Shown here: in pieces, positions 3,479 to 28,373 of the stretch | Layout: every line of letters starts with the position of its first letter | Position numbering within the stretch: the first letter of the stretch is position 1 | DNA from: Candidatus Electrothrix sp. GW3-4 | GTDB taxonomy: Bacteria; Desulfobacterota; Desulfobulbia; Desulfobulbales; Desulfobulbaceae | Reading direction: 5' to 3' | NCBI RefSeq assembly: GCF_037902255.1 | Contig: NZ_CP147990.1 | Span: 2,880,001 to 2,912,000, forward strand | Length of the DNA stretch: 32,000 nucleotides | The notes under the pieces: model-generated | The model's input: the letters and a program-made list of their open reading frames with translations, nothing else | What the model was told of the DNA's origin: nothing | Databases searched by the model: none | Translations under genes and position numbers: made by a program

Positions 3479-3808
3479 TCAGAACGAAAAAAGCTCCTGC
3501 AGGCAGTTGATTATTTTACCCTGTGTGCTCTTGGTAATCATGCCCAATTTTTTTATGAGCCTGGTTTTATCTACAGCTCTCATTTGGTCTAACAAAATCA
3601 ATCCTTCTTTCCCTTGAAATGTGCATTGAATTCTGGTCGGGAAGTTGAATCCCTTTGACGTCATGGGAGCAATAATGGCTGTTTTTAATGCCGACATTTC
3701 ATCTGGAGAAAGAACAACACAGGGTCTGGTTTTCCTGATCTCCGAACCTTGAGTCGGATCTAATTGAACCAACCAGATCTCAAATCGGTGAACGCTTTTT
3801 TTCACCAT
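3479..3808 (-). CDS. mazF: MazF/PemK-family type II toxin (endoribonuclease)
   Basis: FEIWLVQLDPTQGSEIRKTRPCVVLSPDEM...IIAPMTS is the typical PemK/MazF N-terminal signature. Its ATG overlaps the upstream antitoxin stop (ATGGTGA). Confidence 0.85.
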   Translation of the reverse strand: MVKKSVHRFEIWLVQLDPTQGSEIRKTRPCVVLSPDEMSALKTAIIAPMTSKGFNFPTRIQCTFQGKEGLILLDQMRAVDKTRLIKKLGMITKSTQGKIINCLQELFSF

Positions 3809-8161: not shown

Positions 8162-8409
8162 CCAGAGAAATATCCACCCAGTCAAAGAGATCTATGGCTG
8201 TGGTGAGGTTCAGCTCATTACTTTTCATCAAGTTTTGCATATCCCCATTGAGCCAATGAGCAAGATGTTGACTCCCTAAGATTTCTTGACTGGCCAATAA
8301 TTGCTGCAAATAGTGATCATAGGCTGTATCGCTGAAAATCAATTTTTTCGCTTTAAAAAAATAGGCTGTTCTCCTGGCCGGAGTCGACCATTCATACGTC
8401 GCTATATTA
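8136..8409 (-). pseudogene. 3' fragment of a ~282-aa gene of unknown function split by the IS insertion
   Basis: The frame is open from the IS boundary (8409) down to the stop at 8136. It continues the frame of ORF 10056..10649 exactly once the IS and one TSD copy are removed. Confidence 0.75.
8402..8409. repeat. 8-bp target-site duplication CTATATTA (low-coordinate copy)
   Basis: An identical octamer is at 10067-10074, immediately outside the imperfect terminal inverted repeats. Confidence 0.8.
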
Positions 8410-10707: not shown

Positions 10708-11355
10708 TTATGCAGCAAAAGCAGCAGCTTTTTCCGCAGCTAAACCGGCTTTCAGTGAGTTGAGGTTGTTTTGGGCATTGGTGAGTTGTTTCTGAGCATA
10801 ATCTAATACCTTCCCCCCCATCACATCCGCTTCCCTCTCCAACCCCGCATCATCATTCACATTCACGCCCCCTTTCATCTGCATGGTGGGCTGCACTCTG
10901 CCTTGCTTCTGCTGTACCACATGCCATGCCTCATGCGGCAGGTGCTTTTCTTGCCCAGGGGCAATATGAATATCAGTCCCTTGCGTATAGGCATGGGCTT
11001 GCAGTTGCGCAGGCTTATCAGAATGATAATGCACATTAACGTCATCCATCGAATAGCCAGACAGATTCTCAATGCCAGACTTTAAGTTGTCCGGCAAACC
11101 TGTGTTGTTCGCCTGCTTCTGCACCAGCTCTTCCGCTCTGCGCTGCCTGACACCATGAAAGTTCTTCGCCTGCAAAACTTTCCGCTCCGACTGTTCCCCA
11201 GCCTTTGTAGGCATCTTCGCCCGCAACTGTACTGTGGACTGCCGGTTGTCCACGAAAGAGAAGCCCCGTGCCCGGCCATTCTTTTTTCTCTGCGCAACAG
11301 CATGAGCGACCGAAGTGTAGTTGTTCTTATTTTCTTTTTCCTGGTATTCCTGCAT
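10708..11355 (-). CDS. Short DUF4157 (eCIS-core, HExxH) domain protein without an obvious toxin domain
   Basis: Residues 1-157 are paralogous to the 424-aa protein (LPDNLKSGIENLSGYSMDDVNVHYHSDKPAQLQAHAYTQGTDIHIAPG..LPHEAWHVVQQ). A short Ala/Asn-rich tail follows. RBS GGGGAGGA lies upstream. Confidence 0.7.
   Translation of the reverse strand: MQEYQEKENKNNYTSVAHAVAQRKKNGRARGFSFVDNRQSTVQLRAKMPTKAGEQSERKVLQAKNFHGVRQRRAEELVQKQANNTGLPDNLKSGIENLSGYSMDDVNVHYHSDKPAQLQAHAYTQGTDIHIAPGQEKHLPHEAWHVVQQKQGRVQPTMQMKGGVNVNDDAGLEREADVMGGKVLDYAQKQLTNAQNNLNSLKAGLAAEKAAAFAA
10885..11355. repeat. Paralogous ~471-bp DUF4157 module, copy 2
   Basis: See 6282..6752. Confidence 0.8.
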
Positions 11356-11509
11356 CCCTCGTCCTCCCCTTTTTTTGTTGCTGCCAGCAGAACCTGCGTG
11401 CGACTTCCCGCTGCCAATAACCGCTAAAAATATCTACATTTTTTCATCAAACCCCGTCCATTCCAATTTTTTTTGGCACCGAGTTTCGATAATGCCCTTC
11501 ACCTCCAGC

Positions 11510-12637
11510 TTACTCCGTCCCTCCCCCTAGCGCACAGACCTTCTGTTCTTCTTCTATGGCTTCATTCTCATCGATACGGCGGAGGCCCTCCATGATCAGC
11601 CCCATAAAGCCTCCCAGGACCGGAAGTTGTCTTTCCTCCTCAGAGAGCCCCTTGCTATAGAAGAACTGACCATCCTGTTTCGCAAGTATATGAAACACAG
11701 CATTTTTCCCTTCATACCTATCGCACTTGCAAAAAACTATTTCTCCTGCATTGAAGAGAACGCCCCCCTTACATCCATCAAAGATAAAATCAACCTTTCC
11801 GGTTTTTCCGCCGGAATTGATCAATTGAAACAGTTCCACTGTATTGATATCCGAGAGCTCGCCATTCATACCGGACGTGATGTTTCCCGCCCGAAGCGTA
11901 TTCTTCTGGACGCGATCCACCAGCACCCTATAGAAAAAAACCTGCAAAACAGGATGGGTGGAAAGAGTAGATTTAAAGTCCGTGGCCTTTAATGAGGCCA
12001 ATTCCACCGGCGTCTTTGAATGCACCGCAGAAGAAGTCAATTCGCCGGAGAGCAGACTCATCTCGCCAAAGATATCTCCCGGTCCGAGTTCGGCTATCAC
12101 ACCGGTATCATCCCGCACCACAGCCACTTCTCCGGCTAAAACGACATAAAAATGCGTCCCCATAGCGCCAGACTCAATAATGATGGTATTGGCCGGATGT
12201 TTTTCCAGCTTCATCAGGAGAGCCAGATCCTGCAGATCGAAATCATCAAGAGGTTCAAAAAGTTCCATCCCCCGGAGGAGCTCAAAAAACTTTCCGACGA
12301 GCTGATTCTTTGCCCGTTTTTTCGAGAGCTCAAGAAGATTCATCTGTAAGGTGGAATAAGCAACCTCCTTTTTGTATTCAAAGCGAATGAGCCCTGTACA
12401 CCCGCCGCACTCAAATTTCTTTTGCCTTACCCCTGGCTGGGAGGGGACGGCAAGACGATGCTTAAGGAGATTGCTTTCGTCCAGTGCTGTGAGGAGTTCC
12501 TGCACCAGCCACACGCAGAGTTCCTTATTTCCTCCTGCAGAGATGGTTGAATCACGGATGATAAATTCATCTCCTACCCGATACACAGGACAGGTATGTT
12601 CTTCTGTAACAACAAAGACGGCATTACGACGATACAC
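11510..12637 (-). CDS. Cyclic-nucleotide-binding (CAP-effector) domain protein with a C-terminal DUF4388-like domain
   Basis: Central block FYVVLAGEVAVV...LGPGDIFGEMSLL...SAVHSKTPVELASL is a cNMP-binding beta-roll with the FGE motif. The C-terminus (LFQLINSGGKTGKVDF...GGVLFNAGEIVFC...GKNAVFHIL) resembles DUF4388. Confidence 0.7.
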   Translation of the reverse strand: MYRRNAVFVVTEEHTCPVYRVGDEFIIRDSTISAGGNKELCVWLVQELLTALDESNLLKHRLAVPSQPGVRQKKFECGGCTGLIRFEYKKEVAYSTLQMNLLELSKKRAKNQLVGKFFELLRGMELFEPLDDFDLQDLALLMKLEKHPANTIIIESGAMGTHFYVVLAGEVAVVRDDTGVIAELGPGDIFGEMSLLSGELTSSAVHSKTPVELASLKATDFKSTLSTHPVLQVFFYRVLVDRVQKNTLRAGNITSGMNGELSDINTVELFQLINSGGKTGKVDFIFDGCKGGVLFNAGEIVFCKCDRYEGKNAVFHILAKQDGQFFYSKGLSEEERQLPVLGGFMGLIMEGLRRIDENEAIEEEQKVCALGGGTE

Positions 12638-12988
12638 GATTATACACCGATTAAATTTTATTCAGGTGGAATTGCGAGAGGAGGGCAGACAAATACAAGG
12701 ACTCTTATTTTATTCAAGGTCTTATTTTTCCGGTTATTTGCTCTTATCAGTTTAACTGATTTGGAGAAAGGAACAAGTCTAATATCGTCGCAGCTCAGAT
12801 TATCCTTGGTGACAATTGAGGACAGAATAATTATCGGGATAAAACCTGTGGTGCAGACGTGTCCTGTATCATTTTTTTACCCATAGAAGCAACGAGATAA
12901 GGCGAATCAAAGAGAGCTGGCGGAAGGGAAGAACAAGGGGCAAGAAAAACCAGGCAAGTTAGGGCAGCTTCGAGTCGTCTTATTCATC

Positions 12989-13873
12989 TTATTCATTAAG
13001 GCCTCCTTGCAAGCTATCATCCTGCTGCTGAACAGAGACGATCCACGGCTCAAGACGACGACCATAGGCCAGCTTGACCTGATAACGGGGTGGCCTCAGG
13101 TCACCGCTCGTTGGTTTATTCCGGGCAAGAGCGGCCTCAAGTTGCTTCCGATACTTGAGGGGGACATGAATACGTTCTATGCTTAACGCTTTGATCTGCC
13201 CGAAAACTTCTTCCCTCTTCTTTTTGTACATATATCCAGGTTTGACCAATCCCTTGGTAATGATGAACCGGGTTCGGTCCTGATATTTTTCTCGTAATTG
13301 TACGGGATCAAGTCCTGCATCAAGGACAAAGAGACGGGACGCACTTATGCGCTCCCGCTGCAACTCATCTTTAGCCCGTTCAACCTCATCGCGCAGGTTT
13401 TTGTCTCCACTGTTGAGCCGAGCGGCCTCTTTCTTCATTTCCAAGACACGTTCTGCTCTCCTGGCAGCTTCCTGATAGAGTTCCCCATCATTTTCCAGGA
13501 CAAGAAAGACCTCTTTGCTCACGAATCGGTCGGAACGCCACCCTGTATTCTTTGCCTGAAGATACTGTTCTATCTGAAAGCCTACCTCCTCTAATTTATC
13601 GGCATTGAACCAGACAGGCGTTCCCCAATGGCCATAATGGATAGACTCTTCATCCTGGCTCAAGGTTCGCCAGGCAAGTTGCAGAGAGATCCCGCTATTC
13701 TCTTTCACCCATTGTCGCGAGAGCGGCAGCTCTCTTTCAGTAAGGAAAATCTCTGCCTCCGGGGTTCCAGATCTATTGAAAGCAACGCCAGAGAGCACCG
13801 CAATATTAACGCCTATGATGAGGACAAAACCGAGGGTAAATAAGGCACGGGAAGAGAGACGGAGTTTCATCAT
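12989..13873 (-). CDS. Membrane-anchored protein of unknown function (possibly DUF4824-like partner of the upstream DUF2157-like gene)
   Basis: There is an N-terminal TM/signal anchor (RALFTLGFVLIIGVNIAVLSGVAF). The start overlaps the upstream stop (ATGATGA). The family name is a weak recollection only. Confidence 0.45.
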   Translation of the reverse strand: MMKLRLSSRALFTLGFVLIIGVNIAVLSGVAFNRSGTPEAEIFLTERELPLSRQWVKENSGISLQLAWRTLSQDEESIHYGHWGTPVWFNADKLEEVGFQIEQYLQAKNTGWRSDRFVSKEVFLVLENDGELYQEAARRAERVLEMKKEAARLNSGDKNLRDEVERAKDELQRERISASRLFVLDAGLDPVQLREKYQDRTRFIITKGLVKPGYMYKKKREEVFGQIKALSIERIHVPLKYRKQLEAALARNKPTSGDLRPPRYQVKLAYGRRLEPWIVSVQQQDDSLQGGLNE

Positions 13874-14942
13874 GCTTCCTCCTGTACGTTGTTGCTGTAT
13901 GATCTTCGCAGCCGTTTAAAAATCAAGAGGATACCGATGGCGGTCAGGCCGACAAGCAGAAAGAAGAGATACTTGGGCAGCCACTCCCACCACCAGTCAT
14001 AAAATTTTGTATAGAGGAAGATGGTAAAAAAGGTGTTGCCGGTATTGACGACCTCGGGCCAGCCATTCCGTATCCCGAGCCAGATAGCTGCTGCGCTGAA
14101 GACAAAGCCGACAATCTGATAGAGAACCTCAATTGAATCTGCGTCAAAATCCAGATAGCTGATCGCTCCCCAATTCGAGAGGATGAGCACCGGGATAAAA
14201 AAAGGAGCAGGGCAAAAACGCGATAGATGACCGTGAAACCCGAGAACTTATGATGGGGAAGGAAAGAGATCAGGAAAAGAATCAGGGCTGCCGGAAAAAA
14301 ATTCTCTGGTCGTTCACCAAAGGAAATCCAATAGCAGCCGCTCCAGGTCCCGGTCTTGGCAGAGAGAAAGGAGGTCAGACAGATGATGCCTGCTGCCAGG
14401 AGCAAGCGCGCGTCAGCGGCATAGGCAAGAAGAAAGGCAAAGAGCGCCCAGACCAGAAAGGCATTGGGCGTGGGGGTAATATTGAAGATCTGGCCGAACA
14501 TGGAAAGGTTGAGGACAAAACAGGCAAGGCTGACCAGACCGAGGAGCTTGGAGAAATAGCCGGTCTTTTCCCTCTGCGAGGCGTAGAGAGTGCCTGTCAG
14601 ACCAAGCAAGGGGGCTGTGATGAGGATAATAACCTGAATGGTGGTCGTGAATCTGCCCCAGAATTGATAGAAGAGGAAAAAGACACTGGCCGCAAGTCCG
14701 AGCGCACCCAGGAAGGAGGCGATTTTCATCCCCAAGCTGAGCTGCTTTTCCCGTCGGTTGACATCAATATCAAAGGCAGAGGCCAGTTGGGTCAGGAGAT
14801 CCTGGTGGTAATCGGCAATGGCGGAGCGTTGGTTGTCCTGAAGGGAGAAAATATTTTCCTGTTCAAGGAGAGCTACTTCAGCCTGAAAATGTCCGATTTG
14901 ATCAGCCCGGCGCTGGGCCTCGGCTTTTGATTTTATTTGCAT
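13870..14942 (-). pseudogene. Polytopic membrane protein (DUF2157-like) with a -1 frameshift in a homopolymer
   Basis: The 332-aa frame is TM-rich up to ...VIYRVFALLLF, then becomes a hydrophilic S/R/G-rich out-of-frame-looking tail. The overlapping frame (13870..14190) continues with TM-like sequence (IPVLILSNWGAISYL...WWWEWLPKYLFFLLVGLTAIGILLIF). The switch point is the A7 run at 14197-14203. Confidence 0.7.
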
Positions 14943-15051
14943 GGAAACGACCTTACCTATTTAAAGAGTATGTTCCCCTTTTCCAGCAGCTCTCTGGTGA
15001 AAGAATTAGCGGACTGAATGAATCTGTTTAATTCTGATCAGAATATTTTCC

Positions 15052-15387
15052 CTAATCAAGTAACAAGTTGGTATCAATCACATGATATTTTTCTTTCCAT
15101 TCCGACAATCCTAGGCCGCAGTTAAAGTTTTCTCCTGGAATTACGAACTGCTTACATTCTTCAGGATATTCATCAGTATCATGTATTTTACAAAAAGCCT
15201 TATGCCAACCTTTCTTTTTTTCATCATAAGTTGGAGGGATTAAATGAATGCAGGGCTTTCCCTCCGGTTTAATTCCTTCGGGATATCCAACAACTCCCCT
15301 CACTTCATATTTTGCACAACAAGCTCCAGATCTTAAACATTTAAACATATTGACACACCCTGTCTGACAATATTTTATTGTCCCCAT
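15052..15387 (-). CDS. Cys-rich protein, YkgJ/CxxCxxCC-type putative zinc- or Fe-S-cluster domain
   Basis: CQTGCVNMFKCLRSGACC ... PCIHL ... FCKIHDTDEYPEECKQF follows the YkgJ-family cysteine pattern. It overlaps the mCpol gene by 13 nt and lies in the AT-rich block. Confidence 0.5.
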   Translation of the reverse strand: MGTIKYCQTGCVNMFKCLRSGACCAKYEVRGVVGYPEGIKPEGKPCIHLIPPTYDEKKKGWHKAFCKIHDTDEYPEECKQFVIPGENFNCGLGLSEWKEKYHVIDTNLLLD

Positions 15388-15758
15388 ATTTTTATTGTAG
15401 TTGCTTCTGCATTTGTTAGAGTAACAACCTGAGCTTTACCCCTAGCTTTAGCTAATTGCAGTGCCAAATATGCTTTTTCAGCAGAATTGCTAATACCCAC
15501 TGAAATAGTGCATACCCCTACAGGTAACAACTCAATAACATTACCCATTTTATCTTTTTCAATATATGCTAGCACACTATCGCCACCACAAAAAACTATG
15601 TTATAACCATTCAACGATAATAATCTACTGATTTTTTTAAAATATATATCAAGTTCATTACTAAAGTTCGAAACATTTTCAATTTCTTCATTAATTATAA
15701 AGGTGCGCAGATGAAGCCCAACATCATCTCCATCAATAGCAATATATGATTTATTCAT
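15375..15758 (-). CDS. Minimal CRISPR-polymerase-like (mCpol) palm-domain nucleotide cyclase, OptS-like
   Basis: It is 127 aa. YIAIDGDDVG is the N-terminal metal-binding strand and FCGGDSVLAY is the GGDEF/GGDD-equivalent. No other domain is present. It sits directly downstream of a TM-SAVED gene. Confidence 0.7.
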   Translation of the reverse strand: MNKSYIAIDGDDVGLHLRTFIINEEIENVSNFSNELDIYFKKISRLLSLNGYNIVFCGGDSVLAYIEKDKMGNVIELLPVGVCTISVGISNSAEKAYLALQLAKARGKAQVVTLTNAEATTIKIWGQ

Positions 15759-15773
15759 AGTAAGTTGCCATAG

Positions 15774-16787
15774 TTAAATATCCAAATTTTGAATGTCTAT
15801 TACACGTTCCCATACTGGTTCAGTATCATTTGGATTGTAAATAATGATATTCGAATTTTCATGCAGTAGTTTTCCAAGAATAAAGGCCAGCGTACAAGGA
15901 AGTCCAGGAAATAAATGTATAGTTCGCCCCTCCATAGTATATCTCGTCAGCACTTCATTAATTTCATAAGAAATTTGAGACATATCCTCTATCTCAATAT
16001 ATTTATTCCTACCCTTAGGAAAGACTTCTACCTTATTATTTGTAATATCTGGGAAAGGTATACGTGACGCGCTAGTGAATGATAAAATTACAGTAATATC
16101 ACCATATTCATTTATTATCTTCTCATTAAATTTTATTTTCTTAACAGAACTTCGACTCTGCGTTCCTTTCAAATTTGGAGCCATAACATATGATGACGTC
16201 GAGTCACAATAATGATATACAACCCAATCTCTTTCTTTTCCTATAGCATACCCAACTCCTATCAATACTGCTGGTTGCGCTATCGTGAATAAATGTAATT
16301 TTGTTTCTATAGGTATTCTCTTAGCATATCTAAAAAAATGATCTGATATATTCTCTACACTATCCTGCCATGATTTAGTTTCTCTAATTGGTTCATCATA
16401 ATATTGCCAATCAATATCAATTATTTTAAATTCTTTTTCTATAAGAAACAAATCGACCTTGTTTCTTTTCAAGACATTTCGTTGTTTTCTAACACTATCT
16501 TTAAAATAATTACTTTTCTTACCAAGACATATTGAATAACCTGAGCTTACATTATATATTGTTATATATACAATTTTCATTGTGTCTATAATAACATATA
16601 ACAAATAAGATACCAAAAGGGTGATTGAAGCATAATCAAGCCAGATAAACCTATTATTGTTTATCGAGTTAGTAATTATTGTCAATACCGTAACTGGAAA
16701 AATAACAATAACTTCGCCATGCAAACCCCATAGCTGATCTATAAATACACAAAGAAAGTTTTTATTATTATCAGGTTGATTCATCAT
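15774..16787 (-). CDS. Transmembrane-SAVED effector (N-terminal TM helices + SAVED nucleotide sensor), OptE/Cap14-like
   Basis: Hydrophobic helices lie within residues ~20-80. Two CARF-like pseudo-repeat signatures are present: LHLFTIAQPAVLIGVGYAIG and IHLFPGLPCTLAFILGKLL. Confidence 0.7.
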   Translation of the reverse strand: MMNQPDNNKNFLCVFIDQLWGLHGEVIVIFPVTVLTIITNSINNNRFIWLDYASITLLVSYLLYVIIDTMKIVYITIYNVSSGYSICLGKKSNYFKDSVRKQRNVLKRNKVDLFLIEKEFKIIDIDWQYYDEPIRETKSWQDSVENISDHFFRYAKRIPIETKLHLFTIAQPAVLIGVGYAIGKERDWVVYHYCDSTSSYVMAPNLKGTQSRSSVKKIKFNEKIINEYGDITVILSFTSASRIPFPDITNNKVEVFPKGRNKYIEIEDMSQISYEINEVLTRYTMEGRTIHLFPGLPCTLAFILGKLLHENSNIIIYNPNDTEPVWERVIDIQNLDI

Positions 16788-17012
16788 TAATAGCTACTCT
16801 GGCACCAGATACATATCAAATAATTTCAAAAAAGGGTCATAGCTATATAATCTACTTACTAATGCTTCACTAGCAGAGCCCTTTTATTTCAACAATGCAA
16901 TCAATCTCAATCACCAGCCCTTCAACTATCTCAACAAAAAAATCAAAAACTCCGATGTCCAGATCTCCAGATCAAACCCTCAGATAACCTGATCTAAAAT
17001 TTAGGTGAGTTT

Positions 17013-17117
17013 ATCCAAATTTTGGATAAAAAGATCCACCTTGTGAGCTTTTTTGTCCAACCACTGGGCTTTTTAATCCACCCAGTGGACTTTTAAATCC
17101 AATTCGTGGACCTTTTT
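17013..17117. repeat. Five tandem 21-bp iteron-like repeats, each with an internal dyad TCCA-N5-TGGA followed by a T tract
   Basis: (A/G)TCCA starts at 17013, 17034, 17055, 17076 and 17097, an exact 21-bp phasing. The units are ATCCAAATTTTGGATAAAAAG, ATCCACCTTGTGAGCTTTTTT, GTCCAACCACTGGGCTTTTTA, ATCCACCCAGTGGACTTTTAA and ATCCAATTCGTGGACCTTTTT. Confidence 0.8.
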
Positions 17118-17167
17118 GCCCCCAAAATAGATCTCGAAACAGCCGGGACAAATCTTCTCACCCATCA

Positions 17168-17302
17168 CCTAACTCCCCTCAAACTTCCTCCGAAAATGAT
17201 CATACGCCGCATTGATCTCCTTCATCTTCTCCTCAGCAACCCCCTTAAACTCATCACCTAAATGGGCCACCTTATCCGGTTGATACTGCATGGAAAGCTT
17301 AC
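17168..17302 (-). pseudogene. Displaced duplicate of the last 40 codons + stop of the djlA-like gene (J-domain remnant, HPD -> QPD); left copy of a 135-bp direct repeat
   Basis: 128 of 135 nt are identical to 20412..20546 in my hand alignment. It translates to [40 protein letters not shown]. Confidence 0.85.
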
Positions 17303-17332
17303 CTCTCCTTTCCCAAAAAAACACCGTGCAGA

Positions 17333-19948
17333 TCACGCCTGTCCTTTACGGGTCATCTCAAGAGCATGTCGATAAATATCAGGAATTTTATAACGAGAGG
17401 CCTTATCATCGCGTTCTTCATATACAGACAAAATGCCTACTTCCTGAGCAAGAGGGATAAGCTCCTGATTTTTTCCTAAGTCACTTGCTGCAACCGGAGT
17501 ACGCCCAACTCTTTTGAGATTATCCAAGAGGGGTTCCAGTTCTTTAAATTCCTCTTTGAGGGCCTCCAAGGCCTGTACAGAAACTTCAGGGAGACATTTA
17601 ATCAATGCCCGTGGACGCATGAGAGCACGCGGGTAACGTGAACGATTATTTTCTTTTCGTTCCCATGGCACCGCCTCATGAAAAAGCTGGAGAAGATAAC
17701 GCGGGGTGTGATCATTATTGCTGTCAGCCAGTCGGGTCCAAACCCAGTTTCTTGTGAAAGCTGTCCTTCCTCCCTGCATACGCTCGCCGACAAGGATATT
17801 CCAGACAGCAAACACATCTTTTTCTGTCCAGGAGTCTACAGGCCTTTTTTCAGGATCAGGGAGCTCAGATTTTTTTTGCAAAAACTCACGAAAGGGCTTA
17901 CAGCGCAGGGCCTGCTTCAGGATAACTTTGAGAAAAGTGGCCTGCTCTTTCCATTTAAGCTCAACGCTTCTCCCGTACAGATGGCTTTTGTTTTCAAAAT
18001 GCAGCTTCCGCCAGATGTCTTCCCGCAGAAGTATTTTAAAATAAAAGTGCTGTAGATTTTGCCCCTGATTCATCAACAAATCGAACAATCCTTCTATGGC
18101 CGCTGACCGGCGGGTTCTGTCCTGCGGAGTGCTGCCAAAGCCTGTATCCAACCCGTCAAGCAGCAGGAACGTATCTCTTGTTGTCTTGCCATCCAAACGA
18201 AGAAGCCAGTCATTGAGTTCCAGAGATGCTCCCGGTATTTCAGCTGTTCTTTTAAATGCAACTGAGATTTCCCGTTCAGATTGCAAAGGAACCTCTTTCA
18301 GATATTCCGGCATATCAACATCAAGGTCCAAAGAATTCATTATGGCTGTATTGACATAAAGAATCCAAAAATGCCTCCAGGACAATTCACTATCATTGAT
18401 AATTTTCTCAATATACTGAAAGCCGTCCACGCTGATTATCCAGCTTTTTCCCTGCTTCAGAGAAGCCGGGGCATGGACGACCACTGTACTGTATCCCTTA
18501 TCGTCCTCTGATATTCTTCTGAATATCGCCGTTTTCCCAGAGCCTTTTCTTCCAAGAACAAGGGGAATACGGGCAGAAAGGGCATCTTTAACAATCGTCG
18601 TTTCCACAAAGCTGTCTAAAAACGCCCCCTGACTTTCAGCCGTACCCGGTGCAAAGGTCAAGGTCCGTAAAATTTCATCCTTTGCCCGTTCCAGAGATTC
18701 TGCCTGTTGAACTTCATTTTCAGAGGGGAGAAAACGTTCTATCCAATTGACAACCGGTTCAAATTCTTTCCAGATGACAGGATCTTGCAGAATGGCATTG
18801 GATGAGGCGATATCATCCCGATAGCGAATAAAATGGGTGAGTTCATTTTCATCAGAGGATAATTCCTCCCTCTCGCTATTGACTCTATGCATCCATTCTG
18901 CAATCCATCGAAGTGATTTTTCTTTATACCTATTGATAAGTTCCGGGATATTGGGCAGAGGAGATATTAAAAAACGCGGTTCCGGAGTTAATCGCTGACC
19001 AGCTGTCTTCCTTTCTGTAGAGGAGGCAAGCAGCCCCTGGGTCAGCAGTTGCGTACCTAACCGAGCCTGAGGATGGGGGAAAAAGGTGATGATTGCAATA
19101 TCAGCCAGATCAAAAAGAAGGGGTCCGTTAATATCGGTGATGCCTGTCCTGGCATCAAGCAGAACGACATCAGGCGTGAACGGCAATTTTTCTTTTATAC
19201 CAGCCAGCAGAAGTTTTAAGGGGTTATGTTCCTCTCTGTACCAGGCATCAGGAAGAATAAAGCGTAATTTCCGGGCATAATCAGGGGAAATTTGTCCTGC
19301 TGGAATTAAATAAATATTGTCCGCATCCGGCACAGGGATCAGGTGGGAAGAAAAATCCGGTTCTTCTCCCTGATCAAGTTCCATAAGTAAAGAGACAACA
19401 CCTTTATCAGGGCGAACTTCGTTTTCGCAGGCAAATAATGAAGCGAGGCCCGGAGCCTCCAAGTCCATGTCAATACAGACAACCTTGCGCCGGTTTGCTG
19501 ACAGAATATGTGCGGTGTAGGCAAGTGCGGTTGAGCGCCCGACTCCTCCGCGAAGCGAATAGAATGTTGTTACAATCGGAGGGGGGATATCATCGTCAAG
19601 ATCAGAAGGAAAAATGACTTCCGCAGAATTTTCCGCAGAATTTTCAAGAGCACCTTTGGCAAGTTTTTCCGGCCACAGCGGCAGGTCTTCAAGCTGAATA
19701 TCACCGGGCAGGACCCCTATCCATTCCCGCTCTTCTGGAGTAACCAGCTCAATCCATTCTATGGTTTCTTCAATTTCTTCAAGAACAATCTGCCGTCTTT
19801 TTTTTTGCGGTATATCGCGGAACCCTTCCGCGACAACAGCAATCTGCCAGCCGCCATAGGGATCTTGCCGAACAATAATGCGTTCAGTATCAATGCTTGC
19901 CCGCTTTAAATTATTTTCAATTATGAACTGCAGCTCGTCTTTATTCAT
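17333..19948 (-). CDS. 871-aa two-NTPase protein: ParA/MinD-like domain with a variant deviant Walker A (RGGVGRST) fused to a second P-loop ATPase (GRKGSGKT)
   Basis: FYSLRGGVGRSTALAYTA...VVCIDMDLEAPGL...VVLLDARTG fits a ParA/MinD fold (the KGGVGR-variant family as I recall the NCBI naming). The second half has IPLVLGRKGSGKTAIFRRI and FLLLDGLD (Walker B-like). The ATG overlaps the HEPN stop (TAATG). Confidence 0.7.
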   Translation of the reverse strand: MNKDELQFIIENNLKRASIDTERIIVRQDPYGGWQIAVVAEGFRDIPQKKRRQIVLEEIEETIEWIELVTPEEREWIGVLPGDIQLEDLPLWPEKLAKGALENSAENSAEVIFPSDLDDDIPPPIVTTFYSLRGGVGRSTALAYTAHILSANRRKVVCIDMDLEAPGLASLFACENEVRPDKGVVSLLMELDQGEEPDFSSHLIPVPDADNIYLIPAGQISPDYARKLRFILPDAWYREEHNPLKLLLAGIKEKLPFTPDVVLLDARTGITDINGPLLFDLADIAIITFFPHPQARLGTQLLTQGLLASSTERKTAGQRLTPEPRFLISPLPNIPELINRYKEKSLRWIAEWMHRVNSEREELSSDENELTHFIRYRDDIASSNAILQDPVIWKEFEPVVNWIERFLPSENEVQQAESLERAKDEILRTLTFAPGTAESQGAFLDSFVETTIVKDALSARIPLVLGRKGSGKTAIFRRISEDDKGYSTVVVHAPASLKQGKSWIISVDGFQYIEKIINDSELSWRHFWILYVNTAIMNSLDLDVDMPEYLKEVPLQSEREISVAFKRTAEIPGASLELNDWLLRLDGKTTRDTFLLLDGLDTGFGSTPQDRTRRSAAIEGLFDLLMNQGQNLQHFYFKILLREDIWRKLHFENKSHLYGRSVELKWKEQATFLKVILKQALRCKPFREFLQKKSELPDPEKRPVDSWTEKDVFAVWNILVGERMQGGRTAFTRNWVWTRLADSNNDHTPRYLLQLFHEAVPWERKENNRSRYPRALMRPRALIKCLPEVSVQALEALKEEFKELEPLLDNLKRVGRTPVAASDLGKNQELIPLAQEVGILSVYEERDDKASRYKIPDIYRHALEMTRKGQA

Positions 19949-20361
19949 TACAACATCCTTCGACTCCGATGGATATTTTTGTTAATCCAGCCTGTGAGCT
20001 GCTTAGCGGCAGTCACCAGTTCCTCTGCCGAATGAGTCAACACATCGATATTGCTCTGATACCGCAGGGCGGTGTCCCAATCTTCAAGGAAAAACGTCTT
20101 TGCACCAGTGCGATCGTTAAGATCGGAACTTCGAAAACCAGCTGCCCGCCAGAAGCCCCGAAGATTGTGCCCTTCTTTACCTTTAGTTGGGAATCGCCTG
20201 TTCGTTTTTTTCAAATATGCCTTGAGCATACACTCAACAGCATACCCGGCCATATACGCCGGTCCGACAGAGTTATTTCTTGTCGGAAGCATAGCGTCGG
20301 CATCGCCAGCACGTTCCTTGGCTGTGTCAATCCAGTCTTGAAATGATTGCGGATCGTTCAT
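19948..20361 (-). CDS. HEPN-domain protein (classical PF05168-like four-helix type)
   Basis: AKERAGDADAML...GPAYMAGYAVECMLKAYL ... GHNLRGFW ... ALRYQ follows the HEPN helix pattern (A..DL..A..L...A.F.A.QA.E..LKA.L ... H.L..L ... RY). No clear Rx4-6H is seen. Confidence 0.55.
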   Translation of the reverse strand: MNDPQSFQDWIDTAKERAGDADAMLPTRNNSVGPAYMAGYAVECMLKAYLKKTNRRFPTKGKEGHNLRGFWRAAGFRSSDLNDRTGAKTFFLEDWDTALRYQSNIDVLTHSAEELVTAAKQLTGWINKNIHRSRRML

Positions 20362-20411
20362 ATTTTTTTATTTTACGCCTCGACACAACTAACCTTCATC
20401 TTTAAATCCCC

Positions 20412-20546
20412 CCTAACTTCCCTCAAACTTCCTCCGAAAATGATCATAGGCCGCATTGATCTCCTTCATCTTCTCCTCAGCCACCCCCTTAAACTCATCA
20501 CCTAAATGAGCCACCTTATCCGGGTGATACTGCATAGAGAGCTTAC
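20412..20546. repeat. Right copy of the 135-bp direct repeat (functional 3' end of the djlA-like gene)
   Basis: See 17168..17302. The two copies bracket 17303..20411. Confidence 0.85.
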
Positions 20547-21273
20547 GGTAGGCCTTTTTGATGGCAGCAAAATCTGCCCCCTGCTCCACCCCGAGCACGG
20601 CATAATACTGCTGCTCAGCCGGAGCACCGCCGCCAACACCGCCGGACCTCTGCTTTTGATGCCCGTACCGGTATTTATTCTCCATGGTCCGGCGCTCATA
20701 TTCACTAATGCTCAAAAATTGCCCGATCTTGCGGGCCAGATTAAGCTCTGCCTCTTCTGCAGGGCTCTTGGTAAAGATGAGTTGATAGATCAGCTCCAAC
20801 AGGATCAGGCGGGGCTCATAGGCAAAGCGGTTGCGGAACTCGGTGAGCAGGGCATCCAGGTCCTGCTCTTCATCACGGGCCTCCTTGATCAGCTGCTTGA
20901 CCCAGTACATCTGCTCCTGGTTATAATGGAGCGAGTGCTGGAAGAAGTTGAGCATGGTCCGCAACTCGGACTTGGTGAAATGGCCGTCTGCCTTGGCAAT
21001 GCAGACCAGGATATTGACCAGAAGAAAGACAAAACGATTATGGGTCTCGCTCTGGGATTGCTCGTAGGCTGTGGCCCGGCTCTGGATATATTTGGTAAAG
21101 CCAAAAAAGGCCGCAAAGAGAACGATTACCCCGAACAGACCAGAGTAAATAAGGACAGAGACAAAATTCCCCACAGCCTGCCAGCCACCAGTGGCCAACA
21201 GGAGGAGGATCACAATCAAAAGACAACCGCCGCAGCCCGGCTGGTTGCTGTTATAGCTGTACTGGCGTTGCAT
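20413..21273 (-). CDS. djlA: DjlA-like co-chaperone: N-terminal TM segments, TerB-like domain, C-terminal J domain
   Basis: TM region ([15 protein letters not shown].., [15 protein letters not shown]). TerB-like block ([20 protein letters not shown]). J domain ([31 protein letters not shown]). Confidence 0.75.
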
Positions 21274-21315
21274 GGGGAAGGAGGGGAAAAAGGTTGCAGG
21301 GATTGAGAAGGGGGA

Positions 21316-22449
21316 TCAGGGGGCCTGATCAGCGGATGCACTCCCCTCCCCTACGCTGAATAGGGCATCAACAAACTCTTCAGGATCAAAATCCCGCAGG
21401 TCATCGACCTGCTCGCCAATGCCAATAAAACGAACCGGGATTTGTAATTCATGACAGATATGGGCGACAATACCGCCCTTGGCAGTACCGTCCAGCTTAG
21501 TCAAGGTCACGCCGGTAATGCCCACGGCCTCGTTAAACAGCTTGGCCTGGGAAACCGCGTTCTGGCCAGTGGTGGCATCCACCACCAACATCACCTCATG
21601 GGGAGCCGTGGACAGGTTCTTGCCGATCACCCGCTTGATCTTTTTCAGCTCCTCCATCAGGTTAACAGAGGTATGGAGACGACCAGCCGTGTCGATAATG
21701 ACTACGTCATAATCTTTGGCAACGCCCTTGGCCACTCCATCAAAAACCACAGAGGAGGGATCGGACTTGGGTGGTCCGGCAACCACCTCCACTCCAATCC
21801 GGTCGCCCCAGATCTTGAGTTGGTCAATAGCTGCAGCCCGGAAGGTATCACCGGCCACCAGGAGGACGGATTGGCCTGCCTTGGCAAACTTGGAGGCAAT
21901 CTTACCGATGGAGGTGGTCTTGCCCACCCCGTTCACCCCGACCACCATAATAACAAAGGGGCCAGAGTCGGGCAGAACCAGTTCCGCTGCTTGGTCTGAT
22001 TCCTGGAGAAAAGAAAGGATCTTATCGCGCAGGACCCTTTTCAGGGCCTGGGGATCACTAAGGTCCTGGCGCTGGACACTGCTCTTGGCCGCATCCAGCA
22101 GCTCCATTGCTGTGGACACCCCGAGGTCCGCCGTGATCAGGATCTCTTCCAATTCATCAAAGAGCTCCTGGTCAATCTTCTTCCTGCCGCGAAAGAGGGT
22201 GTCCAGACGATGGACAAAGTGATTGCGACTTTTTCCCAGCCGCTCCTGCAGGCGCTGAAACATAGAGCGCTGCGGCTTTTCCTGCTCCTTGCCACCGGCA
22301 TGTCCTGCAAGCGGCGTTGCCTGAGAAACAGGTTCGGCAACAGGGGGTGCCAGCTCCTCAGCTGCCTTGACCTGGGCAGCACCCTTGTCGGGCGCTGCCT
22401 GCTCTTTCTTCTTCTTTCCTGAAAGTTTTTTCTTAAACCAACCAAGCAT
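21316..22449 (-). CDS. ftsY: Signal recognition particle receptor FtsY
   Basis: SRP-GTPase motifs: [45 protein letters not shown]. The acidic/basic N-terminal region fits. The ATG overlaps the lon stop (TAATG). Confidence 0.9.
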
Positions 22450-24830
22450 TATGCGTTATCCGTCTCTTTCTCCAGAACAAATTCCAGAGCTTCTTCAATG
22501 GTGTGCGGATAATGGAAAATAATCCCTTCGCGGACCTCTTCCGGGATCTCCAGCACATCCTTTTCATTGAGAACTGGTAAAACCAGTTCCGTAATTCCGG
22601 CTCGTAAGGCAGCCAGGACCTTTTCCGCAATACCACCCACAGGCAGGACATCGCCCCGCAGAGTGATCTCACCGGTCATGGCCACATCCTGGCGGACTGT
22701 CCGGTCACTGATCACCGAGATCAGGGAGCTGACCATTGCCACCCCGGCAGAAGGGCCGTCCTTGGGGGTGGCCCCGTCCGGCACATGGACATGGAGATCA
22801 ATCTGGGAAAAGACATCCTCATCAATCCCCAAGGATTCCGCGTTGGAGCGGATATAGGTCAGGGCCGCAGAAGCGGATTCCTTCATCACATCGCCGAGCT
22901 TACCGGTCAGGGCAAGACCACCCTTGCCCTTCATCTTCGAGGTCTCGATAAAGAGGATCTGGCCACCCACCGGGGTCCAGGCCAGACCGGTGGAGAGTCC
23001 CGGTCCCCAGGTACGGGCCTTCATTTCAGAGGTATAATTTACTACTCCGAGAAAATCGTAGAGATTATCCGCTGTGACCACAGTCTTCTCAGTCCAGCCA
23101 CGGGCGAGATTGGCAGCAACGCCGCGACAGATGGCTGCCAGCTGACGCTCCAAATTACGCACGCCCGCCTCTCTGGTGTAGGAACGGATAACGGCCAGCA
23201 GGGCCTCATCGTCCATCTCCAGATTCGCCTCAGTGAGCGCATGCTCTCTCAACTGTTTTTTCAACAGATATTTGCGGGCAATGGCCAGTTTTTCATTTTC
23301 CGTATAACTGGATAATTGCACCACCTCCATCCTGTCCCGCAGGGGACCGGGGATGGTCTCCAACATATTAGCGGTGGCGATGAACATGACCTTGGACAAA
23401 TCAAATTCTATATCCAGGTAATGATCAGTAAAGGTCGCGTTCTGCTCCGGGTCCAGGACCTCCAGCAGGGCAGAAGCAGGATCGCCGCGAAAATCATTGC
23501 CCAGCTTGTCGATCTCATCCAGGAGGACAACGGGATTATTGGCCCCCACCTTTTTCAGATTCTGGATAATACGCCCGGGCAGGGCGCCAATATAGGTTCG
23601 CCTATGCCCGCGAATCTCGGCCTCGTCCCGCATACCACCCAAAGCAATACGGGAAAACTTCCGCCCCATGGTCCGGGCGATGGATTGGCCCAGGGAGGTC
23701 TTACCCACCCCTGGAGGACCGGCCAGACAGAGGATCGGACCGTGGATATCGTTTTTCAGCTTACGGACAGCCAGGAATTCCAGGATCCGCCGCTTGATCT
23801 TGTCCAGGCCGTAATGTTCCTCTTCCAGATCACTCTCTGCCTTATTAAAATCCAGAGTATCCTCGGTAGAGACGTTCCAGGGCAGATCCAGGACCCAGTC
23901 AATATAATTGCGGGAAACAGAATATTCCGGGGAAGAAGGAGAAATCCGCTCCAGACGGGTCAGCTCTTTTTCCACCGCCTGATGTGCTTCTTCGCTCAAA
24001 CCGGCCTCAGCAGCCCGTTCCCGCAATTCTTGCAGCTCCACCTTGCCATCAGACTCTTCACCCAATTCCTTGCGGATGGCCTGCATCTGCTGACGGAGAA
24101 AGAATTCCCGCTGTTTGCTGTCAATATCCTTCTTGATATCCTCTTGCAGCTTATTGCTCATCTCAGCGGTGTTGACCCGCCTGTTCAGTTCCCGGGCCAC
24201 CCGATGCAGCATCAGGTTGACCTCAACGATCTCCAGGATCTCCTGTTCCTTATTGACCCGGAGGTTCAACTGCGAGGTCACCAGATAGCCAACATGGAAG
24301 GGATCGGTGATGGCATCCATGGTGGCCATAATCTCCGCAGGCAGATTGATCAGCCCACCGAGCTTTTTAAACTCCTTCCGAATCCCGAGCACCAGGGCCT
24401 CGGTCTCGCCGTCCCTGTCGTTGACCTGCATGGGGAGGATGGTGATCTCGCCTCTGATATAGGGCTGATCCTGGGTGAACTGATCAACGCTGAGCTTATG
24501 GATTCCGCTCACCAGGACCTGATAATAGCCCTCTTCGGTCTTGGAGACCTTATGAAGATATCCCACAGCCCCAACGCGGTGCAGGTCATCACTGGTGATG
24601 GTGTCGTTGTCATCAACCTGTTTTTTATGGCAAAGCACCAGACCGATCATCCGGTCCCCTTCCATAGCCTCATCCACTAACTGCTTAGAGGTGGCGCTGG
24701 CAACCTGGAGGGGAAACCCCATGCCCGGAAAAAAGACAAAGCCGTGCAGGGGAAGCAGGGGTAATTCTTTGGGGATTGGCAGCAAGGTCGGATCTTGCGA
24801 TGTATTCTTTTTTTGTGATTGATCGTCCAT
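22449..24830 (-). CDS. lon: ATP-dependent Lon protease (LonA)
   Basis: LON N-domain (LPLLPLHGFVFFPGM). Walker A GPPGVGKTSLG. Protease site PKDGPSAGVAM. Start is set at 24830 (MDDQSQ..) with GGAG 8 nt upstream, rather than at the ORF-track start 24944. Confidence 0.9.
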   Translation of the reverse strand: MDDQSQKKNTSQDPTLLPIPKELPLLPLHGFVFFPGMGFPLQVASATSKQLVDEAMEGDRMIGLVLCHKKQVDDNDTITSDDLHRVGAVGYLHKVSKTEEGYYQVLVSGIHKLSVDQFTQDQPYIRGEITILPMQVNDRDGETEALVLGIRKEFKKLGGLINLPAEIMATMDAITDPFHVGYLVTSQLNLRVNKEQEILEIVEVNLMLHRVARELNRRVNTAEMSNKLQEDIKKDIDSKQREFFLRQQMQAIRKELGEESDGKVELQELRERAAEAGLSEEAHQAVEKELTRLERISPSSPEYSVSRNYIDWVLDLPWNVSTEDTLDFNKAESDLEEEHYGLDKIKRRILEFLAVRKLKNDIHGPILCLAGPPGVGKTSLGQSIARTMGRKFSRIALGGMRDEAEIRGHRRTYIGALPGRIIQNLKKVGANNPVVLLDEIDKLGNDFRGDPASALLEVLDPEQNATFTDHYLDIEFDLSKVMFIATANMLETIPGPLRDRMEVVQLSSYTENEKLAIARKYLLKKQLREHALTEANLEMDDEALLAVIRSYTREAGVRNLERQLAAICRGVAANLARGWTEKTVVTADNLYDFLGVVNYTSEMKARTWGPGLSTGLAWTPVGGQILFIETSKMKGKGGLALTGKLGDVMKESASAALTYIRSNAESLGIDEDVFSQIDLHVHVPDGATPKDGPSAGVAMVSSLISVISDRTVRQDVAMTGEITLRGDVLPVGGIAEKVLAALRAGITELVLPVLNEKDVLEIPEEVREGIIFHYPHTIEEALEFVLEKETDNA

Positions 24831-27005: not shown

Positions 27006-27983
27006 TCATATATTTTCCTCTTTATTTTTCAATGCGTTTACCTCTTCTTCACTCAACTCTGTCATAGCTGCGATACTCTGGACATCCAACTCACCTGTTG
27101 TAAGAAGTTTGCGGGCAATCTGCATGGCCTTCTTCTTCTCGCCTTCCTTTATACCTTCTTGCTTCCCTTCCTTGATTCCTTCCAGCTTACCTTCCTTCAG
27201 GCCTTCAAGCTTTCCTTCTTTCAGACCTTCTCTCCTTCCTTCCAGAATAGCAGCCGTATAAGACGTCTCAAACATACTGGCCTGATAATGGAGGTTATCC
27301 CGATAGCGTTCATAGGCCCGCTGTTCCTTTTCAGGGAGCTTCATAATGTCCAGTTCATGCTTGGCCTTTTCCAGCCCCTTGGCCCGAAACTCCTCTTTAA
27401 TCTCCTCATTCTTGAGAAAATAGATCCACTCGTCCAGGCTGTCCTTGGCAATATCATCAAAGCTATTGATCTTGATGAGGTAGTATTCTGGAAAGACCTG
27501 ATGCACCTCTTTTTTCCGGTACAAATTTTTCTGACTTTCTGAGAGCTGAAGGATATCCTGATTATGAATACCCTGAAAAGAGGTTGAGCCATGATAGACA
27601 TAATCTGTGCCCTGGCCGAGATCGAAATAGAGAATATTAACCGAAATCACCTTAGACACAGAGGAATACGGATCGCCCTCGCTGAGGTGCTCAGTGATGA
27701 CCTTGGCAGTACTGAAGAGAATACGTTGGAGGTAATCAAGCTCCCGGTCATACTGCACCTCAATGATGACCAGCTCATTGTCCTGGTTTCTGACCTTCAG
27801 ATCCACCCGGTTGAACTTGTCCTGTTGTTCCTCCTTATTGCTTTCGCTTTCCAGGATCTCCAGGATGTGGATATCCTCTTTCAGGAGTTCGCTGAGAAAT
27901 CCTTCCAGGATGTCAAAGTTGGCCTTGCTCCGCAGGAGCTTTTTCATGGCCCAGTCAAAACTGACGAGTTTTCGGGTTGGCAT
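27006..27983 (-). CDS. PD-(D/E)XK nuclease family protein, Rpn-like recombination-promoting nuclease/putative transposase
   Basis: FDWAMKKLL...FLSELL...RVDLKVRNQDNELVIIEVQ...RILFSTAK...ISVNILYF matches the PDDEXK_2/Rpn pattern (D...ExQ). It has the C-terminal EGxx repeat typical of this family. Confidence 0.7.
   Translation of the reverse strand: MPTRKLVSFDWAMKKLLRSKANFDILEGFLSELLKEDIHILEILESESNKEEQQDKFNRVDLKVRNQDNELVIIEVQYDRELDYLQRILFSTAKVITEHLSEGDPYSSVSKVISVNILYFDLGQGTDYVYHGSTSFQGIHNQDILQLSESQKNLYRKKEVHQVFPEYYLIKINSFDDIAKDSLDEWIYFLKNEEIKEEFRAKGLEKAKHELDIMKLPEKEQRAYERYRDNLHYQASMFETSYTAAILEGRREGLKEGKLEGLKEGKLEGIKEGKQEGIKEGEKKKAMQIARKLLTTGELDVQSIAAMTELSEEEVNALKNKEENI
27135..27242. repeat. Nine tandem 12-bp units encoding (EGxx)9 in the Rpn-like protein
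   Basis: EGRR EGLK EGKL EGLK EGKL EGIK EGKQ EGIK EGEK. Coordinates were computed from the ORF end. Confidence 0.7.
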
Positions 27984-28001: not shown

Positions 28002-28373
28002 TTACTGCTGATCATCGTCATCCCCGGCCAGCAAGTCCATGATTTTGTCCACAGATTGTTTAGACAGATCAATAACCTTGCCACGAATCTTCAGGTAAAC
28101 AGGCTTTCCGCTGGACTGAATGACGGCCAGCAGCTTTTTAACCCGCTCCATCCGCTTTGCCCGCTCGGCAAACTGAAGCGAGCCTTCAATGGTGGCCGCA
28201 ATCACAACCAACTGCCAGGCTATATCTAACAAGCCTTTATCTTTATGCTCTCCATTCGGCTGTGGTTCCGGGGCGAACTGCGCGGTCTGCTGAAATTCTG
28301 CCTGGATGAATTCTGCCACTGCGGCCTCAAGTGTCGGGTCGTCTTTTAGGAGACGAAATTCTATTTCAGTCAT
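28002..28373 (-). CDS. Small acidic-tailed protein of unknown function, translationally coupled to the STAND/TPR gene
   Basis: The ATG at 28373 overlaps the upstream stop (ATGACTGA). I prefer it to the ORF-track start at 28403. I recognise no motif. Confidence 0.5.
   Translation of the reverse strand: MTEIEFRLLKDDPTLEAAVAEFIQAEFQQTAQFAPEPQPNGEHKDKGLLDIAWQLVVIAATIEGSLQFAERAKRMERVKKLLAVIQSSGKPVYLKIRGKVIDLSKQSVDKIMDLLAGDDDDQQ

Follow-up and report, generated by a model that had tools for sequence, protein, structure and literature searches.

Defence islands are mostly found at hotspots without visible mobility genes, and how their cargo enters and leaves is an open question. Several described systems combine parts of what such a hotspot would need. 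The elements e14 and phage 21 integrate into the 3' end of a coding gene, icd of E. coli, and bring a replacement 3' end with them. In minimal mobile elements of Neisseria and in defence-island hotspots, whole-gene cassettes are swapped by homologous recombination in conserved flanks. In Rhs, contact-dependent inhibition (CDI) and type VI secretion system (T6SS) loci, a new 3' end together with a partner gene is brought in by homology within the conserved gene body, so that the old 3' end moves downstream; no recombinase is involved, and the proposed mechanism is one-sided (homology-facilitated illegitimate) recombination (PMC5361080). Cis-mobilizable elements (CIMEs) are decayed integrative and conjugative elements (ICEs) or integrative and mobilizable elements (IMEs), which lack the genes for integration and transfer and have kept attL and attR (PMC5704250). 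The locus described here lies in a 32,000-nucleotide stretch of the genome of Candidatus Electrothrix sp. GW3-4 (NZ_CP147990.1, positions 2,880,001 to 2,912,000; referred to as the window), where the 3' end of a DjlA-like gene is present twice, with a two-gene cassette for a HEPN-domain protein and an ATPase between the copies.

The reading favoured here, with some reservation, is that this locus is a long-lived cargo slot made of two copies of the DjlA-like gene 3' end. It offers a testable architecture, in which the duplicated end of a housekeeping gene provides two homology arms; its alleles are found both empty and occupied, its cargo has been turned over, one junction is a reciprocal hybrid, and gene conversion between the copies can be measured. 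The locus is also a hotspot of conflict systems that is specific to the cable-bacterial clade. These bacteria are uncultured, scarcely any mobile-element biology has been described for them, and a search of the literature for their defence islands or genomic islands yielded nothing of relevance.

The duplicated gene end and its cassette

All genes of the region are encoded on the minus strand (Table 1). The protein product of the intact gene matches the Pfam models DnaJ (9.5e-16) and TerB (3e-11), and its order of transmembrane segment, TerB and J domain is that of DjlA. With a score of 95.3 bits against a cutoff of 162 for the DjlA equivalog model (NCBIfam PRK09430), the gene is best regarded as DjlA-like only. 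A look-up of the exact protein gave zero matches, and scans with it yielded 161 djlA loci, 80 genomic and 81 metagenomic. The nearest loci belong to Candidatus Electrothrix and the next group to Candidatus Electronema, both cable bacteria. The order Lon, FtsY, DjlA is kept throughout the Desulfobulbaceae; in most non-cable members djlA is followed by a gene of ~394 aa and one of ~450 aa, both conserved, and the content downstream of djlA differs from this in every cable-bacterial locus.

The repeat copy on the intact gene is called S and the displaced copy S'. A preliminary description of the window, made from its letters alone, had counted 128 identities over 135 nt by hand, and computational alignment (MAFFT and a repeat finder) reproduces this as one direct repeat with zero gaps. 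No second repeat of more than 30 nt was found by the repeat finder in 14000-24000. The extent required a small correction: the repeat does cover the 3' end of the gene and the stop codon, but it comprises 43 codons rather than 40 and reaches 1 nt beyond the stop. It starts with the second base of codon 243 (2 nt), and the base just upstream differs as well (R243, CGT vs GGT), where the homology stops. All seven differences fall on third positions in the DjlA-like frame (P = 4.6e-4 under an even spread over the three codon positions). As originally counted, six of them are synonymous and the sole non-synonymous one, CAC to CAA in S', converts HPD to QPD. This change is private to the window genome; the displaced copy of a related genome (L162, see below) retains the His.

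The copies bracket the two open reading frames (ORFs) for the HEPN protein and the ATPase and nothing else, as had been proposed; the cassette measures 3.1 kb. Scans with Pfam, NCBIfam and PADLOC models found no recombinase domain in either protein. The HEPN protein matches the PADLOC model PDC-M28A (1.5e-6). The ATPase combines a KGGVGR-motif, ParA/MinD-like N-terminal part with a Sll1717-family P-loop part (NCBIfam AAA_KGGVGR, 2.1e-44, and ATPase_Sll1717, 6.1e-35, both over cutoff) and has 511 homologues at E<=1e-10. It matches both PDC-M28B (5.2e-28) and PDC-M28C (9.8e-15), so that the components of this PADLOC candidate are represented by the HEPN protein (A) and the single ATPase (B and C). 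Unlike in PDC-M28, the B- and C-like parts are fused in one 871-aa protein. The cargo tail between the ATPase gene and S' folds at -23.2 kcal/mol (z = -2.8), a weak hairpin with a U-run, and was not called by the terminator scan.

Table 1. Coordinates of the features of the djlA locus in the window
Feature	Position	Strand	Remarks
DjlA-like gene, intact target, 286 aa	20413..21273	-	N-terminal transmembrane segment, TerB-like domain, C-terminal J domain
S, djlA-attached copy	20412..20546	-	last 43 codons, stop codon and 1 nt
Cargo leader, left junction	20362..20411	-	50 nt from djlA stop codon to HEPN start codon
HEPN-domain protein, 137 aa, cargo gene 1	19948..20361	-	Pfam HEPN 5.6e-4, under gathering score
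ATPase, 871 aa, cargo gene 2	17333..19948	-	start overlaps HEPN stop
Cargo tail, right junction	17303..17332	-	short hairpin and U-run, then GGGAAAGGAGAG
S', displaced djlA 3' end	17168..17302	-	QPD replaces HPD; contiguous with native downstream flank
Native djlA downstream flank	16969..17167	-	collinear with empty-site allele
Iteron-like units, four, 21-nt spacing	17034-17121		starting ~45 nt past the S' stop codon
Perfect 10-nt palindrome TTTATCCAAA/TTTGGATAAA	17010-17030		beside the iteron-like units
Second variable slot after S'	15052..16787	-	three genes: SAVED, mCpol, 111-aa protein

Age of the insertion and the empty site

The ATPase has its closest homologue, P0001 with 90% identity, in L162, another Electrothrix genome with the gene order Lon, FtsY, DjlA, HEPN, ATPase. 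From 21336 to 17165 the window is collinear with L162 at 86.4% identity; since the flanking core genes are 84.0-86.5% identical, the cassette has diverged as much as its neighbours. A displaced copy is present in L162 too, and its left edge agrees with that in the window. The homology between the two genomes ends 3 nt past S', where L162 continues with a KAP NTPase gene and the window with a ~30%-GC cassette of mCpol and SAVED genes. The shared succession of repeat, cassette and repeat implies that the duplication is older than the split of the two species.

A third genome (L198, 88% identical to the window) also contains djlA, HEPN and ATPase genes. The displaced copy is absent from L198, where the cassette tail runs straight into TGATGG..., found elsewhere directly downstream of the displaced copy's stop codon. 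Most likely, L198 has lost the copy secondarily, as judged from the facts that the window and L162 keep it and that the native contiguity at the copy is exact. The event seen in the window is ancient and vertically inherited, the structure being older than the split of at least three Electrothrix species. The preliminary description had held that the repeat is not a recent local duplication, and in this it was right: the structure already exists in a species that is ~86% identical, and the third-position excess pooled over several loci (see below) points the same way.

The original state of the site is evidently represented by L002, an Electrothrix-like and more distant genome (~81% identical) without the cassette. 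The djlA 3' end of L002 matches S' and its flank in the window at 95.3% over 149 bp, which extends 14 nt beyond the repeat, and another 93 bp of the flank further on are collinear at 80.6%. The KAP gene of L002 is 88.9% identical over 1124 bp to the one after S' in L162. In the empty allele djlA is followed by an intergenic stretch and the KAP NTPase gene; at the window site, an empty junction would have djlA passing directly into TGATGGGTGAG. Given this collinearity, S' is the piece that stayed with the original neighbourhood, and the native arrangement kept at S' supports an insertion at the djlA 3' end, as first proposed. At the left junction, the homology with the L002 allele and with the S' flank ends 1 nt past the stop codon. 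An empty site had been anticipated and does exist, but with a KAP NTPase gene after djlA and not, as envisaged, the DUF2157 operon; among the first 80 loci there were zero cases of djlA followed directly by DUF2157/DUF4824.

In the relatives the displaced copies are decaying relics: that of L162 lacks 1 nt, that of the Electronema locus L005 contains a stop codon and has suffered an internal deletion, and in L198 the copy is gone altogether. S' of the window can be read as an ORF of 55 aa (17169-17336, minus strand), which starts with a GTG overlapping the ATPase stop codon (GTGA) and encodes a J-domain fragment with QPD. As a conserved gene this ORF was rejected, given the frameshift in the orthologous copy of L162 and the deletion of that copy from L198.

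Recurrence with other cargo and a reciprocal hybrid

Each of the 161 loci was searched by tblastn with its own DjlA (E<=1e-3). A second djlA fragment downstream of the gene was found in four of them, all from cable bacteria, and the same search revealed no third, degraded repeat beyond the mCpol cassette of the window. The four loci differ in their cargo: (i) in the window (Ca. Electrothrix), HEPN and KGGVGR/Sll1717 ATPase genes are followed by an S' of 135 nt that runs from codon 243/244 to the stop; (ii) Ca. Electronema nielsenii (L010) carries an ABC-3C system (SMEK_N/CTD10 protein and DUF2326 ATPase), and its repeat measures 184 nt and is 92% identical, with 13 of the 16 differences at third positions; (iii) Ca. 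Electronema sp. JC (L005) carries VapB, a PIN toxin and a DACNG/DACNH/DAC cyclase, and its displaced copy has an in-frame stop and an internal deletion; (iv) Ca. Electrothrix marina (L001) carries a 474-aa protein with weak, sub-cutoff Pfam matches of beta-propeller-like type, and its displaced copy is an internal fragment (codons 151-198), truncated by a hairpin repeat at the contig end. The expectation of other cargo at the same site is thus borne out among cable bacteria, which carry different conflict-system cargo there.

When the window, L001 and L010 are pooled, 23 of the 27 differences between S and S' fall on third positions, whereas neutral decay of one local duplicate predicts ~46% (p = 3e-5). 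A second pair of empty and occupied alleles is formed by L087 (empty) and L005: S' of L005 and the solute-binding-protein gene that follows it are collinear with the intact gene end of L087 and its neighbour (86.8% over 1376 bp). In L005, the L087-type tail ERQQ is preserved in the displaced copy, and the intact copy ends in ERA-stop.

The most telling junction is that of L010. Its displaced copy (8102-8315) reaches upstream into a linker which matches L087 and L005, not the L010 gene itself. In the 5' part of the repeat, the displaced copy agrees with the other Electronema alleles at 9/9 differences, and in the 3' part the intact copy does so at 6/6 (Fisher p = 2e-4); the two parts are separated by a stretch of 85 identical nt. 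To judge by these alleles, this is exactly the pattern that a single reciprocal crossover would give. The partners would have been the resident allele and an incoming molecule with an Electronema-consensus copy and the cargo. Of the evidence for the attL/attR-like picture drawn in the preliminary description, this hybrid is the strongest.

Some details of the other loci may be added. In the displaced copy of L005 (3229-3347), codons ~222-252 are deleted between two TCTCGGC microhomologies. In L001, short hairpin repeats with GAAAG loops (CTATGGACTGAAAGTCCATAG, GGCGACTGAAAGTCGC) are found at the contig end (12728-12782); they may constitute a REP- or MITE-like element (repetitive extragenic palindrome or miniature inverted-repeat transposable element, respectively) that breaks assemblies at the hotspot. 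The complete genome of Ca. Electrothrix sp. YB6 (L004, ~10880-14900) shows no djlA duplication; its djlA is directly followed by genes identified by eye from their translations as group II intron reverse transcriptase/maturase-like, TcmP-like and Gp37/Gp68-family (DUF5131-like).

Gene conversion and the synonymous bias

S and S' of the window were aligned together with those of L162. Six variable sites unite the copies within a genome and one unites the copies by position; correspondingly, S and S' of the window differ at 7/135 sites, and the intact orthologues of window and L162 at 15/135. The single copy of L198 has the tail CGG CGG AAG TTT GAG (RRKFE), which otherwise occurs only in the displaced copy of L162. 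On the grounds of the six sites against one and of this tail variant, S and S' exchange patches by gene conversion in both directions. In L162, the displaced copy is a pseudogene, since besides the 1-nt deletion it carries changes in every position of the codon, and S' of the window looks clean because it was recently homogenised.

Owing to gene conversion, the synonymous bias in the window alone is no proof of two lineages meeting. The preliminary description had interpreted the bias in this sense, which is not supported: the event is old, as seen from L162, and the copies have been converted, so the window holds no clean sign of it. A more general caution follows for other loci, namely that conversion from a selected copy can create or maintain synonymous-only divergence, which alone does not prove foreign origin. 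Blurred by conversion, too, is the question of which copy is native: S' differs from L002 at 6 sites and S at 10, without a spatial pattern.

Another trace of exchange is seen along the gene. Where two djlA genes encode the same amino acid, the codons are identical more often in the last 43 codons than in the rest of djlA, and this holds in cable bacteria only. Between L005 and L010, identical codons amount to 38/42 in the last 43 codons vs 85/160 in the rest (p = 5e-6); the same test gives p = 5e-5 for L010-L087 and p = 0.017 for L002-L004, and p = 0.72 and 0.86 for non-cable control pairs. This uniformity fits repeated lateral exchange, or conversion, of the djlA end.

Comparison with described systems

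C-terminal displacement arrays are the closest structure. As in these arrays, behind the full-length gene lies a displaced 3' fragment which includes part of the conserved region, and the displaced fragment keeps its neighbour (S' and flank correspond to L002; S' and the solute-binding-protein gene of L005 correspond to L087). The arrays, however, vary in a toxin 3' end that comes with an immunity partner. Here the J domain is invariant, the protein tails being near-identical across genera, and serves as homology arm only; the variable part is an unrelated stand-alone cassette. In addition, the reciprocal hybrid of L010 fits a circular single crossover better than one-sided linear displacement.

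The resemblance to e14 and phage 21 at icd consists in the intact target, the old 3' end at the far side and the mostly synonymous differences. In contrast to these elements, which possess their own integrase and one fixed crossover site, no integrase is found here, the cargo is 1.7-3.2 kb in size and the left edges vary. A coding gene of this type as an integration hotspot had been called noteworthy in the preliminary description; the hotspot itself is supported in outline; integration into the 3' end of a coding gene is known behaviour. Of the features of integrative elements in general, the 135-nt direct repeats, the intact 286-aa gene and the unoccupied sites (L002, L087) are present; a recombinase in or next to the element and a fixed crossover position were not found.

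CIMEs are similar in that att-like repeats flank a segment without integration or transfer genes at the end of a target gene. They differ in coexisting with related functional elements at the same att site, of which no example or remnant was found here. Neither the annotated loci L001, L004, L005, L008, L010, L162 and L198 nor the viral scan contained ICE, IME or phage genes at djlA; the remaining djlA loci were screened only for the window genes, a second djlA fragment and shared downstream ORFs. With minimal mobile elements, the locus has in common that different whole-gene cassettes occupy one site without mobility genes. Their flanks are two different core genes, whereas here both flanks are the same gene end in direct orientation, and hence loop-out and re-insertion as a circle would be possible.

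Proposed exchange of cargo and alternative explanations

Host homologous recombination could import and exchange the cargo, with the highly conserved J-domain coding sequence as the arm. Two routes can be envisaged, both of which would make a dedicated integrase unnecessary: (i) recombination between S and S' in a donor would yield a circle with one copy of S and the cargo, which would then enter the djlA 3' end of a recipient by one crossover; (ii) a linear fragment would recombine one-sidedly by homology, and the old 3' end would be displaced downstream. A shared length of 85-135 nt at 92-95% identity suffices for RecA-type recombination. The right edge of S' always lies at the stop codon within a few bases, presumably because the conservation between donor and recipient ends there, and the left edges lie at three codons: 243/244 in the window, ~211 in Electronema and 151 in L001. 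The absence of an integrase between the repeats, noted at the outset, extends from the HEPN protein and the ATPase to all four cargo types; no recombinase domain was detected in the cargo of L001, L005, L010 and L162, in the tested ORFs across the window, or in the flanks seen in L162, L198, L004 and L008. An IS5 transposase is situated ~7 kb beyond the repeats. Because no integrase was found and the left edges differ, a dedicated site-specific element is less likely, and integrase-free, homology-driven cassette exchange by host recombination seems the somewhat more probable course than the loss of an integrase. The decayed or trans-mobilised element suggested in the preliminary description thereby gives way to homology-driven exchange.

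Such a decayed or trans-mobilised element, in its full form, would be a site-specific integrative element at the djlA 3' end with a replacement end, whose integrase either is gone, as in CIMEs, or works in trans from another part of the genome. It is considered rather unlikely. It would accommodate the direct repeats of the gene 3' end, the intact target gene, the empty sites and the hybrid repeats of L010, and also the junction that L005 and L010 share despite their differing cargo and the T-run at every right junction; moreover, CIMEs by definition keep attL and attR after losing the genes for integration and transfer (PMC5704250). Yet no integrase and no ICE, IME or phage remnant lies between or beside the repeats in the loci examined, and three left edges would require three recombinase specificities. 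Each left edge may represent a separate founding event, in which case the variation weakens the site-specific class without killing the claim. A viral-contig scan with the J-domain tail returned generic J proteins only (<=88% identity) and revealed no djlA 3' end of near identity. Homologues of the cassette from non-cable bacteria (L163/L164, from a Desulfobulbus defence island, L199 and L200) share homology from the HEPN start to the ATPase stop only, and no djlA fragment was found at them; therefore the cassette family owns no attP. According to a third scenario, the cargo was inserted right after the stop codon and the repeat arose by local duplication (repair synthesis or replication slippage), both copies being initially identical and native. 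The 95% identity of the window copies, their exchange of sequence and the right edge at the stop codon would suit this scenario, which is nevertheless improbable in view of the third-position excess, the L010 linker with its match to L087 and L005 instead of its own gene, the reciprocal mosaic, and the ERQQ tail of the displaced L005 copy next to the ERA-stop of the intact one. An assembly artefact (chimeric join or collapsed repeat) might be suspected from the related contigs L003, L082 and L085, which end just after djlA, but its probability is practically nil: L162 was assembled independently with the same arrangement, L198, which comes from a different sample, has the cassette after djlA, the Logan unitig L081 reaches from one repeat across the cassette to the other, and the copies differ at 7 sites and in their flanks.

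Homology-driven exchange, on the other hand, has several points to contend with. It draws on only ~10 cable-bacterial loci with usable downstream sequence. No recombination intermediate was observed. L005 and L010 have the same S' left junction (TTTTGAAGACGGCCAG) and the same L087-type linker with entirely different cargo, so the cargo was turned over without disturbing the junction; simple circle shuttling does not predict this, and a specific site could be responsible. In 5/5 loci a T-run and then G(A/G)(A/G) stand in front of the displaced copy; this motif may be the terminator of the last cargo gene or could be a recognition site, and a recombinase may be encoded elsewhere in the genome, outside the 32-kb window. 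Finally, family membership is the sole basis on which the cassette is taken for a putative anti-phage or abortive-infection module, in which the ATPase would act as sensor or switch and the HEPN protein as the likely RNase effector.

Two further possibilities go beyond cassette exchange by host recombination as such. The duplicated djlA 3' end may be a self-sufficient mobility device that works without a recombinase and whose circle can enter any cable-bacterial djlA, a proposal that is tentative and judged less probable than the exchange itself. If it holds, defence cassettes would circulate within the clade on a piece of a housekeeping gene, and this traffic would keep the djlA end unusually uniform at synonymous sites. 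The alternative, equally novel, is that an undiscovered trans-acting recombinase may recognise djlA coding sequence.

Separately, the 3272-bp Logan contig L081, the only match in a look-up of the ATPase, was considered as a circle and rejected: its length approximates the 3244-nt repeat spacing plus the sole shared run of at least 31 identical bases, as expected of a unitig break.

Other features of the window

In the native flank of S', the palindrome and its flanking units are kept in L002, and L198 has a degraded remnant only; the window shows an 84-nt expansion of four units. This iteron-like array could be a regulator-binding array for the downstream cassette. The latter occupies the second variable slot, which in L162 and L002 holds the KAP NTPase gene, and has a GC content of 0.27-0.35 (~0.5 nearby). 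It encodes a SAVED protein of 337 aa with a predicted N-terminal membrane part (Pfam 6.4e-11), mCpol (minimal CRISPR polymerase; 127 aa, 1.6e-22) and an overlapping, Cys-rich protein of 111 aa without a family. By its domains, the SAVED/mCpol cassette looks like a stand-alone cyclic-nucleotide signalling defence module.

Farther from the locus, ~6 kb upstream of djlA and just past a LolE-like gene, a 325-aa Rpn-family recombination-promoting nuclease/putative transposase is encoded (27006-27983, minus strand; TIGR01784, 85 bits vs a cutoff of 52). On the other side, two eCIS_core (DUF4157-type) paralogues with near-identical N-terminal regions (5478-6752 and 10708-11355, minus strand) enclose an AAA ATPase in two ORFs (6783-7136 and 7100-8185), probably a frameshifted pseudogene, the IS5-family transposase (8418-9968) and a 197-aa orphan ORF; the segment 5478-11355 looks like a disrupted toxin/effector-type locus. 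A MazF/PemK-type toxin (1.1e-26) is encoded at 3479-3808 (minus strand), next to which no antitoxin ORF of at least 100 aa was called, and a 299-aa protein with weak matches to the DSP-PTPase phosphatase domains of polymorphic toxins at 4342-5241 (minus strand). At 28366-31977 (minus strand), a 1203-aa protein consists of a region of near-identical 34-aa tetratricopeptide repeat (TPR) units (consensus DYAAAEAMYERAVEADPKHADNLGNYAVFLKNQKQ) and a non-TPR N-terminal region; this array is so regular in its DNA that long spurious ORFs arise on the opposite strand.

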